A stretch of 41,996 nucleotides of DNA, from the IMG/VR virus record IMGVR_UViG_2681813224_000020; one strand, given 5' to 3'. The translations under genes were made by a program, and so were the position numbers. The notes under the pieces are model-generated. The model ran no database searches and was not told where the DNA came from. It saw only the letters and a list, made by a program, of their open reading frames with translations. Source of the stretch: a virus. Taxonomy: Duplodnaviria > Heunggongvirae > Uroviricota > Caudoviricetes. Shown piece by piece: positions 7,099 through 38,496 of this stretch; positions within the stretch are counted from its first letter, which is position 1; each line of letters starts with the position of its first letter.

Positions 7099-7629
7099 TC
7101 AAACCTTACTTATTAACATGCACGTTACAGAAATAATAAAAAATACAAATGACATAACCATCCATCGAAACAACTCATTTACAAACGCTGATTTTTCTTT
7201 ATGGATTTTCTCGATTCTATCAATAGCCCTACCATACATTATCAAATGAAATCTGACTGTGTCATCTCTACTACCCCTCAGAAGAAATTCATGTTGTTCA
7301 GGTGTTCGATGCACAGGCATTTTGGGAATATTTCTAAGTTCCCAACATTTCCATAAATAATAAAAACAAAAAACCAAACATACAAAACATGAACATAGAC
7401 ACAATAGAGACAATCTTGCGGATAGACTAGTCTTTAACTGTTGTCCCAGCTCAAAGGACCCAAAAACGGCTAATAATGCAGAAATCTCAACACCAAGCAC
7501 AGCAAGAAGAAAATTAGCTTTGTCCTCTAACCGCCTGTATGTTGTCTTAACTTCTTCATACCTGTCTCTCGAGTACGACAAAATCGTATCTACTTCAAGG
7601 CCAACAGCCTCATTCCTTTGATTGCACAT
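7099..7629 (-). CDS. Hypothetical integral membrane protein (AT-rich moron inside the baseplate gene cluster)
   Basis: 176 aa; N-terminal charged helix, then hydrophobic stretches FLLAVLGVEISALLAVFGSF, LSLLCLCSCFVCLVFCFYYLW and FRWMVMSFVFFIISVTCMLI; clearly AT-rich against flanking tail genes. Confidence 0.6.
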   Translation of the reverse strand: MCNQRNEAVGLEVDTILSYSRDRYEEVKTTYRRLEDKANFLLAVLGVEISALLAVFGSFELGQQLKTSLSARLSLLCLCSCFVCLVFCFYYLWKCWELRNIPKMPVHRTPEQHEFLLRGSRDDTVRFHLIMYGRAIDRIEKIHKEKSAFVNELFRWMVMSFVFFIISVTCMLISKV

Positions 7630-32614: not shown

Positions 32615-32704
32615 CCCTTCTTCATAGACGCCCGGTTACACGCCGGGCGAGATCCAAAAAGCTATTGGAATTTTTACGGCTATTTGTTTTTATAGAGGTA
32701 TTAC

Positions 32705-34207
32705 GTGTCAACTTTGAGAATCGGTATGGAAATCCAAGAGTTTGTAAGTCACTATAAAAACCACCCTGTTCTATTCATTGGAACAGGATTTAGCCTACGG
32801 TATCTAGAAAACTCATTTAGCTGGGATGGTCTTCTTTTGAGTGTCGCAATGGAACTAACCGGTAATGCTGAGTTTTACTACGATTTGAAAGCTGAAAGCC
32901 TAGAAGGTGACGACTATCGATATGATATCTTAGCTACAAAACTTGAAGATATTTTTAATAAAAAGCTGGCAGAAGACCGTAACGGTAAGTTCAAAGACAT
33001 CAATGATGTTTTCTATGAGCACATGAAAAAAGGAAAAAAACTAAGTCGATTCAAAATTTATTTAACTTCAATACTTAAAGACCTAAAGATAAAAGAGTCA
33101 ATGATGGAGGAAATAAACAGCTTAATAAAAACAAGAAAAAACATAGGCTCCATCATTACAACAAACTACGACCAACTCGTAGAGAATATCTTCGAATTTA
33201 ACCCACTGATTGGTAACAACATTCTTTTAAGTAACCCATACGGTTCAGTTTACAAAATACATGGCTGTGTTAGTGATCCTAACAACATAATTATCACAGG
33301 TGAAGACTACGCAAACTTCGACAATAAATATGAGTTAATTCGCGCTCAATTACTCTCAATATTCATACACAACCCTATCATATTTATAGGGTATAGTATT
33401 AGCGATAAAAACATTAAGTACTTATTAAAAACCATATTCTCATACGTTGACTTAAATACCGAACTTGCAAAAAGGATAAAAGATAATTTCCTTTTGGTTG
33501 AATACGAAAAAGACAGCATGTCAACTGAAATTACGGAGCATGACATAGATATAGAAGGCATGTCTATCATAAGAATAAACAAAATAAAAACAAACAATTA
33601 CAAAGCTGTATATGATGCCATCTCTGGACTAGTTTTGCCAGTATCCGCAATGGACATAAGAAAGGTTCAAAAAGTTTGGAGTACCATCAAAAGTGGTGGT
33701 GAGATAAAGGTTAAAATTACAGAAAATTTAGATGAACTTCGCAATGATGAAATGGTCATTGCTGTTGGTTCAGAAAGAACCGTACAATATGTTTATCAAA
33801 CAAAATCTGAAATGATACAGAACTATTTTAAAATAGTTGACGAAGCAAACTCTCAGCTTATCGCATTACTGAATAAGCAAACCATAGCTAATAGCGAACA
33901 CTTTCCAATATACGCTTTTAGTTCTATCTGCCCTGAACTAGAAAATACCGAGACATACAGAAAACGGCAGCTAGATAAAATCATTGGTAACCTTTCTCGA
34001 ATTAAAACATGTAAGAGTGAGGCTGTGTCTATTGATGAAATACTAAAAGAAACGAAAGAGTATAAAGTTGCTAACACGATTATGTATTGCGTACTAAACG
34101 ATACTATTTCATTGAAACAACTACGAGATTATTTAACAAAACCAGGGCATAAAATTGATACCCAATACAGGCGACTTTTATGCTTGTATGATTATTTATC
34201 ATATTAA
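32705..34207 (+). CDS. SIR2-like (SIR2_2 / DUF4020-type) protein with a C-terminal domain of unknown function; candidate NADase-type anti-phage defence gene, AT-rich insertion
   Basis: 500 aa; motifs in order PVLFIGTGFS, SWDGLL, IITTNYDQLVE, YKIHGCVSDPNNIIITGEDY, NPIIFIGYSISDKN match the hallmark pattern of the defence-associated SIR2 family; codon usage is strongly AT-rich against its flanks; GTG start with RBS AGAGG; own terminator. Confidence 0.7.
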   Translation: MSTLRIGMEIQEFVSHYKNHPVLFIGTGFSLRYLENSFSWDGLLLSVAMELTGNAEFYYDLKAESLEGDDYRYDILATKLEDIFNKKLAEDRNGKFKDINDVFYEHMKKGKKLSRFKIYLTSILKDLKIKESMMEEINSLIKTRKNIGSIITTNYDQLVENIFEFNPLIGNNILLSNPYGSVYKIHGCVSDPNNIIITGEDYANFDNKYELIRAQLLSIFIHNPIIFIGYSISDKNIKYLLKTIFSYVDLNTELAKRIKDNFLLVEYEKDSMSTEITEHDIDIEGMSIIRINKIKTNNYKAVYDAISGLVLPVSAMDIRKVQKVWSTIKSGGEIKVKITENLDELRNDEMVIAVGSERTVQYVYQTKSEMIQNYFKIVDEANSQLIALLNKQTIANSEHFPIYAFSSICPELENTETYRKRQLDKIIGNLSRIKTCKSEAVSIDEILKETKEYKVANTIMYCVLNDTISLKQLRDYLTKPGHKIDTQYRRLLCLYDYLSY

Positions 34208-34228
34208 GCATTCTTAACTTCGGTTATA

Positions 34229-34256
34229 AAAAGCCGCCATTTTGGCGGCTTTTTAT
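34229..34256 (+). terminator. Rho-independent terminator after the SIR2-like gene
   Basis: AGCCGCCATTTTGGCGGCT followed by TTTTATTTATT. Confidence 0.55.
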
Positions 34257-34283: not shown

Positions 34284-36359
34284 ATGCAAAAACTTTGGTT
34301 AGACCTCGAAACTTTCAGCGAAATCCCAATAAAAAACGGCACCCATGTCTATGCAGAAGGAGTCGAAATCATGTTATTCGCATGGGCAATCGACGAAGAC
34401 CCCGTCAGCGTACACGATTTAACCACAGACTATAACTTGCCGACACGACTACTGACAGCTCTCAGCGATGAGAGCGTACTAATATATGCACACAACAGCC
34501 ATTTCGATCGCACCATGTTGCGCCATGCATTACTGCACACTCCCCAATGTGTTGTTGCAGGTAGTGCCAAACGCTGGCGAGACACAATGGTACAGGCGCT
34601 GGCGCATGGTCTCCCGGGGTCTCTGGGGGAACTCTGCGAAATACTCGGCGTCCCGCAAGACAAAGCGAAGGACAAAGAAGGTAAAGCGCTGATCCAGCTG
34701 TTCTGTAAGCCCCGCCCGAAAAACAGCAAACTGCGCCGTGCCACCAGCAAAACCCACCCGGAAGAATGGCGGCGCTTTGTTGCTTACGCCGGACTGGATA
34801 TCGAGGCAATGCGCGAAGTCTATAAACGTCTGCCGAAGTGGAATTATCAGGGGACAGAGCTGGCGCTCTGGCATCGTGATCAGCAGATCAACGACCGGGG
34901 CGTCTGCATGGACATGCAACTCGCGCGCGCTGCGATCGAAGCGGTAGACCAGGAGCAAAAGCGCCTGGCAAAGCGTACACAGGAAATGACTGATGGCGAA
35001 GTGCAGGCAGCCACACAACGGGACGCGTTGATTAAGCACATTGTTGAATCCTACAGTGTGGAGCTACCAGACATGCAACGCAGTACTCTGGAACGTCGTA
35101 TTGCCGACCCCGATTTACCATCTGCCGTGAAAGAACTGCTGGCTATCCGCCTGCAAGCCAGTACTACCAGCACCAGTAAATACAAGGCACTGATGAAAGG
35201 CGTAAGCCACGACGGGCGCTTACGCGGTACGCTACAGTTCTGCGGGGCGTCACGTACCGGTCGTTGGGCCGGACGGCTATTCCAGCCCCAGAACCTTCCC
35301 CGCCCTTCACTAAAACAGGAACAAATAGACGAAGGCATCGAAGCACTGAAAGCCGGATGTGCAGACCTGCTGTTTGACAATATCATGGAACTAACCAGTT
35401 CAGCGTTACGTGGCTGCATTATCGCGCCAACAGGCAAAAAACTGGTGGTAAGTGACTTGTCAAACATTGAAGGCCGTATGCTGGCATGGCTGGCGGGAGA
35501 AGAATGGAAACTGAATGCATTCAGAGAGTACGACGCCGGAACGGGTCCGGACTTATATAAACTGGCGTATGCAAAAGCTTTCGATATTGCACCAGATGAT
35601 GTTGATAAACACATGCGTCAGATCGGTAAAGTCATGGAACTCGGTCTGGGTTATGGAGGTGGTGTATCGGCTTTCATCACTTTTGCTCTGGTTTACGGTC
35701 TCGATCTCGACGAGCTGGCGAACGCCGCACTGCCAAACATTCCCCGCGATGTTATCCGCGAGGCGAAAAGCTGGTACGACGAATCGGTTAAACGTAAGTC
35801 GACCTTTGGCCTTTCCGAGCGTGTATTCATCGCATGTGACTCGCTCAAGCGCCTGTGGCGCAGGGCGCACCCGGCGACCTGCGATTTCTGGTACGAGCTG
35901 GAGCGCACTGTCCGCACAGCAATCGCCACACCGCAAAAAACATTGTATTGCGGTTATCTTAAAATCCGACGTGATGGCGCGTGGCTGCGCATACAGCTAC
36001 CATCCGGACGCGCTGTATGCTACCCGTCTCCGGTTATCGAAAAAGGGAATATCACCTATATGGGTGTTAACTCTTATTCGCGTAAATGGCAACGACTCAA
36101 AACCTACGGCGGAAAGCTGGTGGAGAACGTCACCCAGGCGGCCGCCCGCGACGTTCTGGCCGGAAACATGCCGCTTATCGAAGATGCCGGTTACAGCATT
36201 GTGTTGACGGTACACGACGAGGTGATCACCGAAGCACCTGACACAGAAGATTTCAACGATAAAGTGCTTTCCGCGCTTCTCTCCACTAACCCCGAATGGG
36301 CGCCCGATATCCCACTGAACGCTGGCGGTTTTGAGGCGTACCACTACCGTAAGGATTAG
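34284..36359 (+). CDS. Family-A DNA polymerase (3'-5' exonuclease plus polymerase domains)
   Basis: Exo I LDLETFSE; motif [19 protein letters not shown]; motif [17 protein letters not shown]; motif C TVHDEV. Start taken at [11 protein letters not shown] (ATG 34284); the ORF-track start 34242 lies inside the upstream terminator. Confidence 0.85.
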
Positions 36360-36412: not shown

Positions 36413-37174
36413 ATGATGCAGGATCTCAATGAAATGGCTCTCAAATACCCACACCCTGTCGAAACTTTTCGTCAATTTTTAGTCGAATCCGGATTTGATG
36501 TTACCGGAGAAGAAAACAAAGCCGGTCATGATTGTTATCGTTTAAGTAATGGTGCCATCATAACGCTTTACCACACCGGAACGATTTTGATTCAAGGCTC
36601 ACAAGCGGCAAAACCAGAGGTTGAAGCCATTATTAATGAACACTTGGGTAACGCGCCAGCTCAACGAGTTCAGCCAGCCCCGGTTCAAGAGCCAGCCAAA
36701 AAGATTTTCATCGTTCACGGTCACGACCATGCAGCAAAAGAGCAGCTTGAGCTCATTCTTCATAAGCTTGGGTTACCTGATCATTTTATTTTGCAGAATA
36801 CAGGTGGTACTGGACTTACGATAATTGAAGAACTGGAGCGTGAAATTGGTCAAGGGCAGACAGCGACTCGTTTCGGCATTGTTCTTCTCACTCCCGATGA
36901 TGTGGGATACTCCAAAAGAGACGGTCAAGAAGCAGCCCTGCCCAGGGCTCGTCAAAATGTAGTTCTAGAAATGGGGATGTTGTTATCATCACTCGGCCGC
37001 AGTAACGTGGTCATCTTGCAGAAGCAACACCTTGAACAGCCTTCTGATGCTGCGGGTATTCTTTATCTCAACTTTAATGATCATGTTCGAGAAACTGTAC
37101 CTCGCTTAATCCAGCGCCTTAAACAGGCCGGTTTCACATTTAATGAAGCTCAAATAGCGAACGCTTCATCTTAA
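36413..37174 (+). CDS. Two-domain protein: small N-terminal domain plus C-terminal Rossmann-like nucleotide-binding domain resembling TIR-like / SLOG families; candidate accessory gene
   Basis: 253 aa; C-terminal domain motifs KKIFIVHGHDHAAKEQ, NTGGTGLTIIEELERE, FGIVLLTPDD; Pro/Gln-rich linker APAQRVQPAPVQEPA; RBS AGGAAA; own terminator. Family assignment is tentative. Confidence 0.4.
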   Translation: MMQDLNEMALKYPHPVETFRQFLVESGFDVTGEENKAGHDCYRLSNGAIITLYHTGTILIQGSQAAKPEVEAIINEHLGNAPAQRVQPAPVQEPAKKIFIVHGHDHAAKEQLELILHKLGLPDHFILQNTGGTGLTIIEELEREIGQGQTATRFGIVLLTPDDVGYSKRDGQEAALPRARQNVVLEMGMLLSSLGRSNVVILQKQHLEQPSDAAGILYLNFNDHVRETVPRLIQRLKQAGFTFNEAQIANASS

Positions 37175-37732: not shown

Positions 37733-37876
37733 TTATGGTTTTTTGGGTGGTGGAGCTGGCTGGGAAGTTTGCTTCGAAGGTTGAAAACCATTATTAGCCA
37801 AGTCATTTTTAGGCTGATACCCTTTTTCAATAGGGGTATATCCATCTTCCTTATAACTTCTTTTGGTATCTGACAT
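37733..37876 (-). CDS. Small Pro/Lys-rich hypothetical protein (47 aa), translationally coupled to the upstream membrane-protein gene; absent from the ORF track
   Basis: Hand translation MSDTKRSYKEDGYTPIEKGYQPKNDLANNGFQPSKQTSQPAPPPKKP; its ATG shares one base with the TGA of the 206-aa gene (TGATG overlap). Confidence 0.3.
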   Translation of the reverse strand: MSDTKRSYKEDGYTPIEKGYQPKNDLANNGFQPSKQTSQPAPPPKKP

Positions 37877-38496
37877 CAGTTGCTTTCTCCATTATTGCAT
37901 GTTGGTAGTTCAAAACGGAAAAACTCTAAATTTTCTATATCGTTACCTAAAATTAATATTCCTAATGTTGAAACTCGAGGGCGTTCAAATCCCCCATCAT
38001 CGTTTAGAACCCAATGTTCCTCAAGATAAATTTGCTCTGGCTCTGGTGCACTGGAAGCAAATGAGTTAGCCCCAAACTTGCCTGCTATTTTTTTACCATT
38101 TTTTAGCGTAATAATCATCCAACAGGGGACTTTTAACCCAAAGAAATAATCCCAAGCTCTTCCGGTAGGATGTGGCATATAATTACATAACCAACGCCAA
38201 GTTCGCATCCAAGAGAAAAATATCGTTAACAATATTGGGCTAATGAATAAAATCACCAAGTATAAAGCACAATAAAGAACAGGATGTTTGAGATATACAC
38301 CCTCAGATTCTATAAAATATATAGGAGCAAACCATACTGCGTAATTTATACAGCTATAAGAAACAATTTCCACAATCGCTTTAGAAGTATCAAAAGCGGT
38401 ATTAGGATGAATAACACTATAAACTTTCATACTTATAAAACCAGGAATAACGAAAAGCAAAAATATAATAATTTTACTTTTTTCCCAAATATCCAT
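37876..38496 (-). CDS. Hypothetical integral membrane protein, AT-rich antisense moron inside the early replication operon
   Basis: 206 aa; hydrophobic segments IIIFLLFVIPGFI, AVWFAPIYFI, VLYCALYLVILFISPILLTIFF, then a soluble C-terminal domain; RBS AGGGG; opposite strand to all neighbours; strongly AT-rich. Confidence 0.6.
   Translation of the reverse strand: MDIWEKSKIIIFLLFVIPGFISMKVYSVIHPNTAFDTSKAIVEIVSYSCINYAVWFAPIYFIESEGVYLKHPVLYCALYLVILFISPILLTIFFSWMRTWRWLCNYMPHPTGRAWDYFFGLKVPCWMIITLKNGKKIAGKFGANSFASSAPEPEQIYLEEHWVLNDDGGFERPRVSTLGILILGNDIENLEFFRFELPTCNNGESN

Follow-up and report, generated by a model that had tools for sequence, protein, structure and literature searches.

The closest sequence relative of the SIR2 domain considered here belongs to Thoeris ThsA, a SIR2-SLOG enzyme that hydrolyses NAD+ (NADase; PDB 6lhx, 7uxt, and 8bto). 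ThsA carries a SLOG or Macro ligand-binding domain, and the Thoeris locus has an adjacent thsB gene (TIR). Precedents for defence by a single SIR2 protein are DSR1/DSR2 and sole-Sir2. DSR1 and DSR2 are single proteins that join an N-terminal SIR2 NADase to a non-catalytic C-terminal region presumed to sense phage, and they act by abortive infection; they are ~1000–1250 amino acids (aa) in length, with large alpha-solenoid sensors. The CRISPR-supervised ('CRISIS') sole-Sir2 is a stand-alone SIR2 protein of ~440 aa with shown NADase activity, and a homologue protects Escherichia coli against T2 and T4 (bioRxiv 10.1101/2024.12.27.630466). The literature separates an immune 'SIRim' branch from the sirtuins. 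Here, we analyze a SIR2-family gene of virus record IMGVR_UViG_2681813224_000020, a stretch of 41,996 nucleotides (nt) called the window below. A sequence-only reading had proposed that this gene encodes a prophage-borne, NAD-depleting defence.

The window protein most resembles ThsA and DSR, in that it is predicted to pair a SIR2 NADase with a regulatory C-terminus and to follow the same single-protein, abortive-infection logic as DSR. It differs from each described system in turn. In place of the SLOG or Macro domain of ThsA it has a helical C-terminus without a match, and neither flanking gene encodes a TIR protein; because both the ligand-binding domain and the ThsB partner are missing, canonical activation by a ThsB-made signal is not possible. 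At 500 aa, it is far shorter than the DSR proteins and has no solenoid sensor, and its match to the PADLOC Dsr1 model is marginal (E = 3.7e-5, aa 149–278 only). Compared by description only, sole-Sir2 has a C-terminal, DSR2-like Sir2 domain behind an uncharacterised N-terminal region, whereas that of the window protein is N-terminal and ThsA-like. No HerA or DUF87 gene (as in SIR2-HerA, also called Nezha or Gao_19) was found near the window gene or at other loci of its family. The protein lacks the defining features of ThsA, DSR1/2, and SIR2-HerA and is a straightforward member of PDC-S25, a single-gene family with the same architecture of SIR2_2 followed by the same C-terminal region. We judge that the gene is probably a self-contained, horizontally mobile, single-gene anti-phage cassette that encodes an abortive-infection NADase.

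A PDC-S25 protein with intact SIR2 catalytic residues

The protein matches the PADLOC model PDC-S25 (PDLC04968) over its full length (E = 4.1e-158; aa 4–500 against model positions 4–514 of 517) and likewise matches phrog_2695 of PHROG in full (E = 1e-154), a family annotated there as of unknown function. The PADLOC models for ThsA (E ~ 1e-18), Dsr1, and SIR2-HerA match the SIR2 core only. The family is already on record, as PADLOC PDC-S25, as PHROG 2695, and in Table S5A of Rousset et al. (2022). The source of the PDC families was genes that lie within BREX, DISARM, and type I restriction-modification (RM) loci. The gene and its parts are as follows.

32705..34207 (+): SIR2-family gene, PADLOC PDC-S25 family; 500 aa from GTG 32705 or 493 aa from ATG 32726
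32705..33622 (+): SIR2 (SIR2_2 / 'SIRim') predicted NADase domain, ~aa 1–306
33623..33802 (+): conserved middle segment, aa ~307–366, LPVSAMDIRKVQ...GG.IKV.ITE.LD; predicted local distance difference test (pLDDT) score <60 in both models
33803..34204 (+): all-helical C-terminal domain, aa ~367–500, family-specific

All five motifs quoted in the sequence-only reading are present in the translation of 32705..34207, and its assignment to the SIR2 family was borne out by a match to Pfam SIR2_2 that far exceeds chance (PF13289; E = 1.7e-22; score 80.5 bits, gathering threshold 24.5). The same Pfam family was matched by 95 of the 96 PDC-S25 members scanned. The domain contains a glycine-rich loop (PVLFIGTGFS), N154 and D156 within TTNYD, and H186 within KIHG; these three residues align with the catalytic motifs of ThsA and do not vary in two alignments, one of 45 close and one of 12 distant members of the family. 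The ThsA equivalents of N154 (TTNYD) and H186 (KxHG) are N112 and H152. The best sequence matches in the PDB are Thoeris NADases, including SeThsA and BcThsA, over aa ~138–306. Structure comparison also places the fold nearer to immune SIR2 NADases than to deacylase sirtuins, with ThsA, KomC, Avs5, AVAST5, and FAM118B as neighbours; the entries of the latter four were all deposited as filaments.

A family-specific C-terminal region

Alignment to ThsA stops at ~aa 306, leaving ~195 aa from ~aa 307 onwards. The sequence-only reading had described an unmatched C-terminal region of ~230 aa: the lack of a match held, while the length had to be reduced. No Pfam match to these ~195 aa was obtained in the 96 members scanned at E <= 1, nor was any match found in the PDB or among the viral structures of BFVD. 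A SLOG or Macro domain was considered for this region and rejected, as no similarity emerged in PADLOC-model, Pfam, or structure comparisons; the profile search suggested earlier for SLOG and SIR2_2 returned the latter alone.

The region is heterogeneous in its conservation. Residues 307–366 come close to the catalytic core in their conservation (entropy 1.09 versus 0.93 bits), while aa 413–478 form the most variable stretch of the protein (2.34 bits). The helical domain ends in the tail motif YRRLLCLYDY. A phmmer search of aa 300–500 against 1.84 billion representatives returned 92 clusters, in which every full-length match was a protein of ~500 aa with SIR2_2 in front and the remainder were fragments; no fusion of the C-terminal module to another effector domain was found in this search. 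Two repeat-protein matches from it look spurious.

Many proteins of ~135–145 aa (P0155–P0181) start at a conserved Met-Met that precedes the helical domain, equivalent to residue ~370 of 500 in the query; one of them is WP_212899300.1 (P0178) of Capnocytophaga cynodegmi. The stand-alone proteins of ~135 aa lie mostly on contigs of <6 kb and are probably truncated gene calls. A few are encoded on contigs of 16–177 kb; these may represent split genes or pseudogenes, or else the domain in stand-alone form.

A related protein from a P4-satellite hotspot, WP_001133507 (pFR88), belongs to the same SIR2 clade (33% identity, E = 2e-32, aa 20–308) and, like the window gene, is encoded by a single gene carried as cargo in an E. 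coli phage/satellite hotspot. Its 452 aa end in an unrelated C-terminus, and the PDC-S25 model covers it at positions 10–358 of 517 only. Because this sister shares the SIR2 clade but differs in its C-terminus, the C-terminal module is exchangeable, as expected of a sensor or regulator.

One cargo of a variable slot in a replication module

The window corresponds to a ~41-kb E. coli prophage whose integration site adjoins yfhL. It encodes an integrase, VapE primase, DUF2800 protein, Enc34-type single-stranded DNA (ssDNA)-binding protein, polA, VRR-NUC and SNF2 helicase proteins, and myovirus structural proteins; phages vB_EcoM-606R2, 689R2, and 611R5 are 98% identical to the window in the regions flanking the SIR2 gene. 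The carrier of the gene is a temperate E. coli myovirus prophage. In agreement with the flanks named earlier as DUF2815-like and polymerase genes, Pfam identifies Enc34_ssDNA-bd (formerly DUF2815) upstream and DNA_pol_A downstream. The following features bound the gene.

32629..32649 (+): GC-rich hairpin just past the DUF2815 stop (folding free energy, dG, -16.1 kcal/mol; z = -2.9)
32665..32694 (+): promoter-like block with TTGGAA at 32665–32670, TG at 32685–32686, and TTTTAT/TTTATA at 32688–32694
32695..32698 (+): GAGG Shine-Dalgarno-like element, read from the sequence, 6 nt before GTG 32705
34226..34256 (no strand assigned): intrinsic-terminator hairpin of bidirectional shape, between the SIR2 stop and the polA start
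34284..34569 (+): divergent polA start, first ~95 codons, forming the right part of the exchanged segment 32649–34569

Among 5,426 complete E. coli genomes searched, 159 carry these flanks; the SIR2 gene is present in five of them and absent from 154, a distribution expected of the horizontally acquired moron proposed earlier. The flanks in related prophages are 97–99% identical. However, the proposal that the gene interrupts an otherwise conserved module did not hold, since no relative examined had the slot between DUF2815 and polA empty. Besides the SIR2 gene, at least six cargo sets are found in it: a 209-aa protein, a 178-aa protein, a 199-aa protein, Nmad5 with a 229-aa protein, Nmad5 with an 89-aa protein, and BRO-N with a 199-aa protein. 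They lie mostly on the opposite strand and are AT-rich (GC content 0.285–0.41). None has a PADLOC match and Pfam recognizes only Nmad5 and BRO-N; these cargos could be unrecognised defence or exclusion genes. Their positions are given below.

Alternative slot cargos: L003:1368-1997, L004:1368-1904, L005:1367-2691, L006:1367-2342, L007:1342-1941, L008:1697-3175

The SIR2 gene is therefore one alternative cargo of a variable slot and not an insertion into an otherwise uninterrupted operon. Against the relatives, homology breaks off at 32648 and is regained at 34570. The GC-rich hairpin marks the end of backbone homology and, with it, the left boundary of the exchanged segment; in the Klebsiella counterpart this hairpin is also present, with a T-run after it, in the shape of an intrinsic terminator. 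On the right, polA is 97–98% identical to its relatives from 34570 onwards, while the 95 nt before this point are only 74–78% identical and the translations differ. The exonuclease-side N-terminus of polA diverges from all related prophages, placing a mosaic joint inside an essential replication gene. No flanking direct repeats suggestive of transposition or site-specific insertion were found around the exchanged segment. Given these breakpoints, which include the polA start, and the lack of direct repeats, the pattern agrees better with homologous exchange among related phages than with transposition.

The strong AT bias noted from the sequence was confirmed. The gene has a GC content of 0.331 (0.324 at third codon positions, GC3), compared with 0.494 for DUF2815, 0.534 for polA, and 0.494 for the whole window, and windowed calculation showed it to be the lowest-GC stretch of 1482 bp in the window, ~3.7 standard deviations under the mean. 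Its start is ambiguous between GTG 32705 and ATG 32726, because the Met encoded by the latter is invariant across PDC-S25, while the Klebsiella homologue has an ATG at the position of the E. coli GTG and the GAGG element, the ribosome-binding site proposed earlier, lies 6 nt before that GTG. PGAP calls the identical gene of E. coli Rb-50 from the ATG at window position 32726 (493 aa).

The gene also appears to carry signals of its own. The promoter-like block precedes the gene in four divergent alleles (those of E. coli, Klebsiella, the P2 hotspot, and the yecA island), which occupy four genomic settings with differing surrounding DNA; from this, a promoter function may be inferred. The predicted terminator was recovered as a perfect 14-nt inverted repeat (34226–34239 / 34243–34256) with a 3-nt loop, an A-run before it, and a T-rich tail after it (dG -20.1 kcal/mol, z = -5.9). 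This hairpin is absent from the list of a consensus terminator scan and is retained in the Klebsiella cassette with compensatory changes. A search of Rfam around the gene gave nothing above threshold, with sub-threshold matches falling on the terminator hairpin only. With the upstream block and terminator both conserved among alleles, the unit looks like a promoter-ORF-terminator cassette (ORF, open reading frame) that is predicted to be expressed.

Distribution and genomic contexts of the family

Matches at E <= 1e-5 number more than 1,700 proteins, and a family profile draws 1,358 at E <= 1e-10. Full-length members that are 55–60% identical occur in Enterobacteria, Vibrio, Aeromonas, Neisseria, Aliarcobacter, Bacillus, Paenibacillus, Eubacterium/Anaerotruncus, and Flavobacteriia, and the genes have a GC content of 0.29–0.35 in every host examined, whatever the GC content of the host. 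Within E. coli, 74 of the 5,426 genomes (~1.4%) carry a member, in at least four alleles. The contexts include the following.

Klebsiella, 71% identical: same ssDNA-binding/polA slot, in a decayed prophage by sbcB; 668 collection blocks
E. coli, allele of 74% nt identity: P2-like prophage, between portal gpQ and replication protein gpA
E. coli allele: adjoins a restriction endonuclease, a PD-(D/E)XK nuclease, and a DUF262 protein, beside yecA
E. coli allele: adjoins an ABC-3C system in an integrative element
Proteus member: adjoins a type II RM system
Firmicutes member: adjoins a 993-aa reverse transcriptase and a HATPase protein
Salmonella member: in an integrase island
Methylobacter, Vibrio, and Neisseria members: alone between housekeeping genes
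Bacillus prophage phBC6A51: 27%-identical full-length homologue beside holin and amidase genes

No neighbour is shared across these more than 11 genomic contexts, in line with the earlier statement that the gene lacks an adjacent cognate partner. The gpQ–gpA location of P2 is the tin/old hotspot, for which experiments have demonstrated defence systems (Rousset et al., 2022). The protein encoded there, WP_021514374, is listed as a single-gene 'SIR2_2' system in Table S5A of the same study and is not among the systems validated in it. The location of members in the P2 hotspot and beside restriction, ABC-3C, and RM genes strengthens the case for a role in defence.

In the Klebsiella prophage (L009–L012, near sbcB and dacD), VapE is cut to 199 aa and DUF2800 to 71 aa, and the SIR2 gene is intact while neighbouring phage genes are truncated. 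The prophage has the look of a domesticated remnant, kept for the sake of this gene. In Bacillus toyonensis (contig L024), a second, shorter SIR2_2 protein (386 aa) is encoded ~4.5 kb from the PDC-S25 homologue on a plasmid-like element with resolvase and integrase genes. In E. coli 23CRST009 (L030), an IS1 element with a 9-bp duplication lies at codon ~52–54 of an otherwise 100%-identical allele, at the equivalent of window positions 32859–32867, and cuts the glycine-rich NAD loop off the remaining sequence; PGAP nevertheless annotates a 494-aa 'SIR2 family protein' whose start lies within the IS1. This split is compatible with either a fitness cost or decay.

Proposed mechanism and alternative explanations

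We propose that the protein would be made in the lysogen from the cassette's own promoter and be kept inactive by its family-specific C-terminal region. Upon infection by another phage, this region would sense some cue, with the variable helical patch (aa ~413–478) as the best candidate for a specificity surface. The ThsA-like SIR2 domain would then be switched on, probably by higher-order assembly as in ThsA, KomC, Avs5, and FAM118B. Hydrolysis of NAD+ through Asn154/His186 would deplete the NAD+ pool and abort the infection. Besides the genomic contexts, the defence reading rests on the SIR2_2 identity, the intact catalytic residues, the status of the gene as cargo, its mobility, and the absence of a partner; taken together, sequence and context support the earlier interpretation of a predicted NAD-depleting defence.

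Several observations weigh against this model. The gene is co-directional with the replication operon, so it is possible that it is expressed solely during the prophage's own lytic growth. The proposed promoter, while conserved as a block in the four alleles, is a weak match to consensus: TTGGAA-N18-TTTATA (second hexamer 32689–32694) agrees at 7 of 12 positions and was not flagged by a promoter scan. AlphaFold2 models are poor for aa 166–211, which include His186 in the 500-aa numbering, and for aa 313–363. The identity of 55–60% from Enterobacteria to Firmicutes is unusually high for a sensor-bearing defence protein, and the IS1-split gene is one of only five near-identical E. coli alleles. 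The pFR88 SIR2 protein was cloned and tested, and is not one of the seven systems for which protection was reported (Rousset et al., 2022). The source paper labelled its 145 PDC systems 'untested phage defence candidates', and we found no later experimental validation of PDC-S25 in the literature.

A role in the lytic programme that benefits the phage itself, with the gene expressed along with the replication operon and acting through manipulation of the host NAD+ pool or ADP-ribosylation or deacylation of a target during the phage's own replication, or a toxin that stabilizes the prophage, seems unlikely to us. The same gene occurs outside phage replication contexts, including alone between housekeeping genes, and 154 of the 159 related prophages do without it and carry unrelated, mostly opposite-strand cargo instead. 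In addition, the cassette has its own conserved upstream block and terminator, and its closest relatives in both sequence and structure are immune NADases. Rather improbable, too, is a silent or decaying passenger gene, spread by recombination between related prophages and with no current role. Such a gene would account for the split allele and for the related P4-hotspot SIR2 protein having no reported phenotype; however, the ORF is intact in the window and the family retains 55–86% identity with invariant catalytic residues across phyla. Moreover, the persistence of an intact gene within the decayed Klebsiella prophage, across those 668 collection blocks, indicates selection on the gene itself.

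The sequence-only reading left room for either a single-gene system or an unusual split arrangement, of which only the former stands. A split Thoeris-like system would make the SIR2 protein a ThsA-type effector that receives its signal from a TIR-like protein encoded 2.2 kb downstream, with polA between them. The SIR2 domain is indeed closest to that of ThsA, and the same module encodes a protein with a Pfam CAP12-PCTIR_TIR match (E = 5.8e-31). Yet this protein is no ThsB: it belongs to the effectors of CAP12/PycTIR type and is a single-gene candidate in its own right, PDC-S35. Its gene is distributed independently of the SIR2 gene: of the 47 E. coli genomes that have it, most are without the SIR2 gene, and it is absent from the SIR2 loci of the Klebsiella, P2, yecA, integrative-element, and Proteus contexts, as well as from those of Neisseria, Methylobacter, Vibrio, and the Firmicute. 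On this distribution we rejected the pairing, which we regard as highly improbable. We give still less credence to a phage-borne housekeeping-type sirtuin, i.e., a CobB-like NAD-dependent deacylase. Pfam matches the protein only to SIR2_2 and not to the classical SIR2 family, its best matches (ThsA, KomC, Avs5, and FAM118B) fall in the SIRim branch, and its distribution is patchy, mobile, and AT-rich.

Within the abortive-infection NADase model, a more tentative idea, possible but doubtful, is that the C-terminal region may be a new kind of infection sensor and that, in parallel, the DUF2815/polA slot of this widespread enterobacterial prophage family may be an undescribed defence hotspot, whose other AT-rich cargos could be new defence genes. 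If so, the conserved half (aa 307–412) may recognise a cue common to multiple phyla, e.g., a small molecule or host-state signal, and the variable patch (aa 413–478) may tune specificity.

Other features of the prophage

The downstream TIR-like gene (36413–37174, +) encodes a 253-aa protein with a C-terminal CAP12/Pycsar-type domain (Pfam E = 5.8e-31) and a full-length match to the PADLOC candidate PDC-S35 (E = 1.7e-109). Among the 47 carriers in the 5,426 E. coli genomes, 37 share only the TIR part (aa ~95–253, 76% nt identity), which suggests that the N-terminal ~95 aa have been swapped. Between the genes for VRR-NUC and the SNF2 helicase lies a second variable slot, which here holds an AT-rich gene (37876–38496, -; GC 0.34, GC3 0.26) for a DUF6338 membrane-like protein without a PADLOC match. 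Elsewhere, this slot holds two hypothetical genes (vB_EcoM-606R2), a 305-aa protein (Rb-50), or DUF6338 (Klebsiella prophage).

At the left end of the prophage (328–975, +, and 1056–1646, -), an AT-rich 215-aa ORF (GC ~0.31) with no Pfam or PADLOC match adjoins a Gin/Cin-type resolvase (invertase) as well as tail-fibre and tail-fibre-assembly genes; this end is probably an invertible host-range segment with another cargo gene. A further 176-aa ORF (7099–7629, -) lies in an AT-rich patch (GC 0.36) of the tail/baseplate region and has no Pfam or PADLOC match.

Implications

The present result is the correct annotation of an already catalogued candidate and not a discovery. The parts that could repay further work are the C-terminal module and the two variable slots as possible defence hotspots: the DUF2815/polA slot and the second slot 4 kb downstream could be mined for defence genes in the manner of the P2 and P4 hotspots. 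If active, the protein would be among the smallest ThsA-like SIR2 NADase defences that operate without a TIR partner, and would bear a sensor module whose fold has no known match. The carriage of ~1.4% in E. coli and the wide spread in Klebsiella make the family relevant to host-range prediction in phage therapy. Because temperate phages and islands carry it in hosts that range from E. coli to Bacillus, Neisseria, and Bacteroidota, it may shape the susceptibility of many pathogens to phages.

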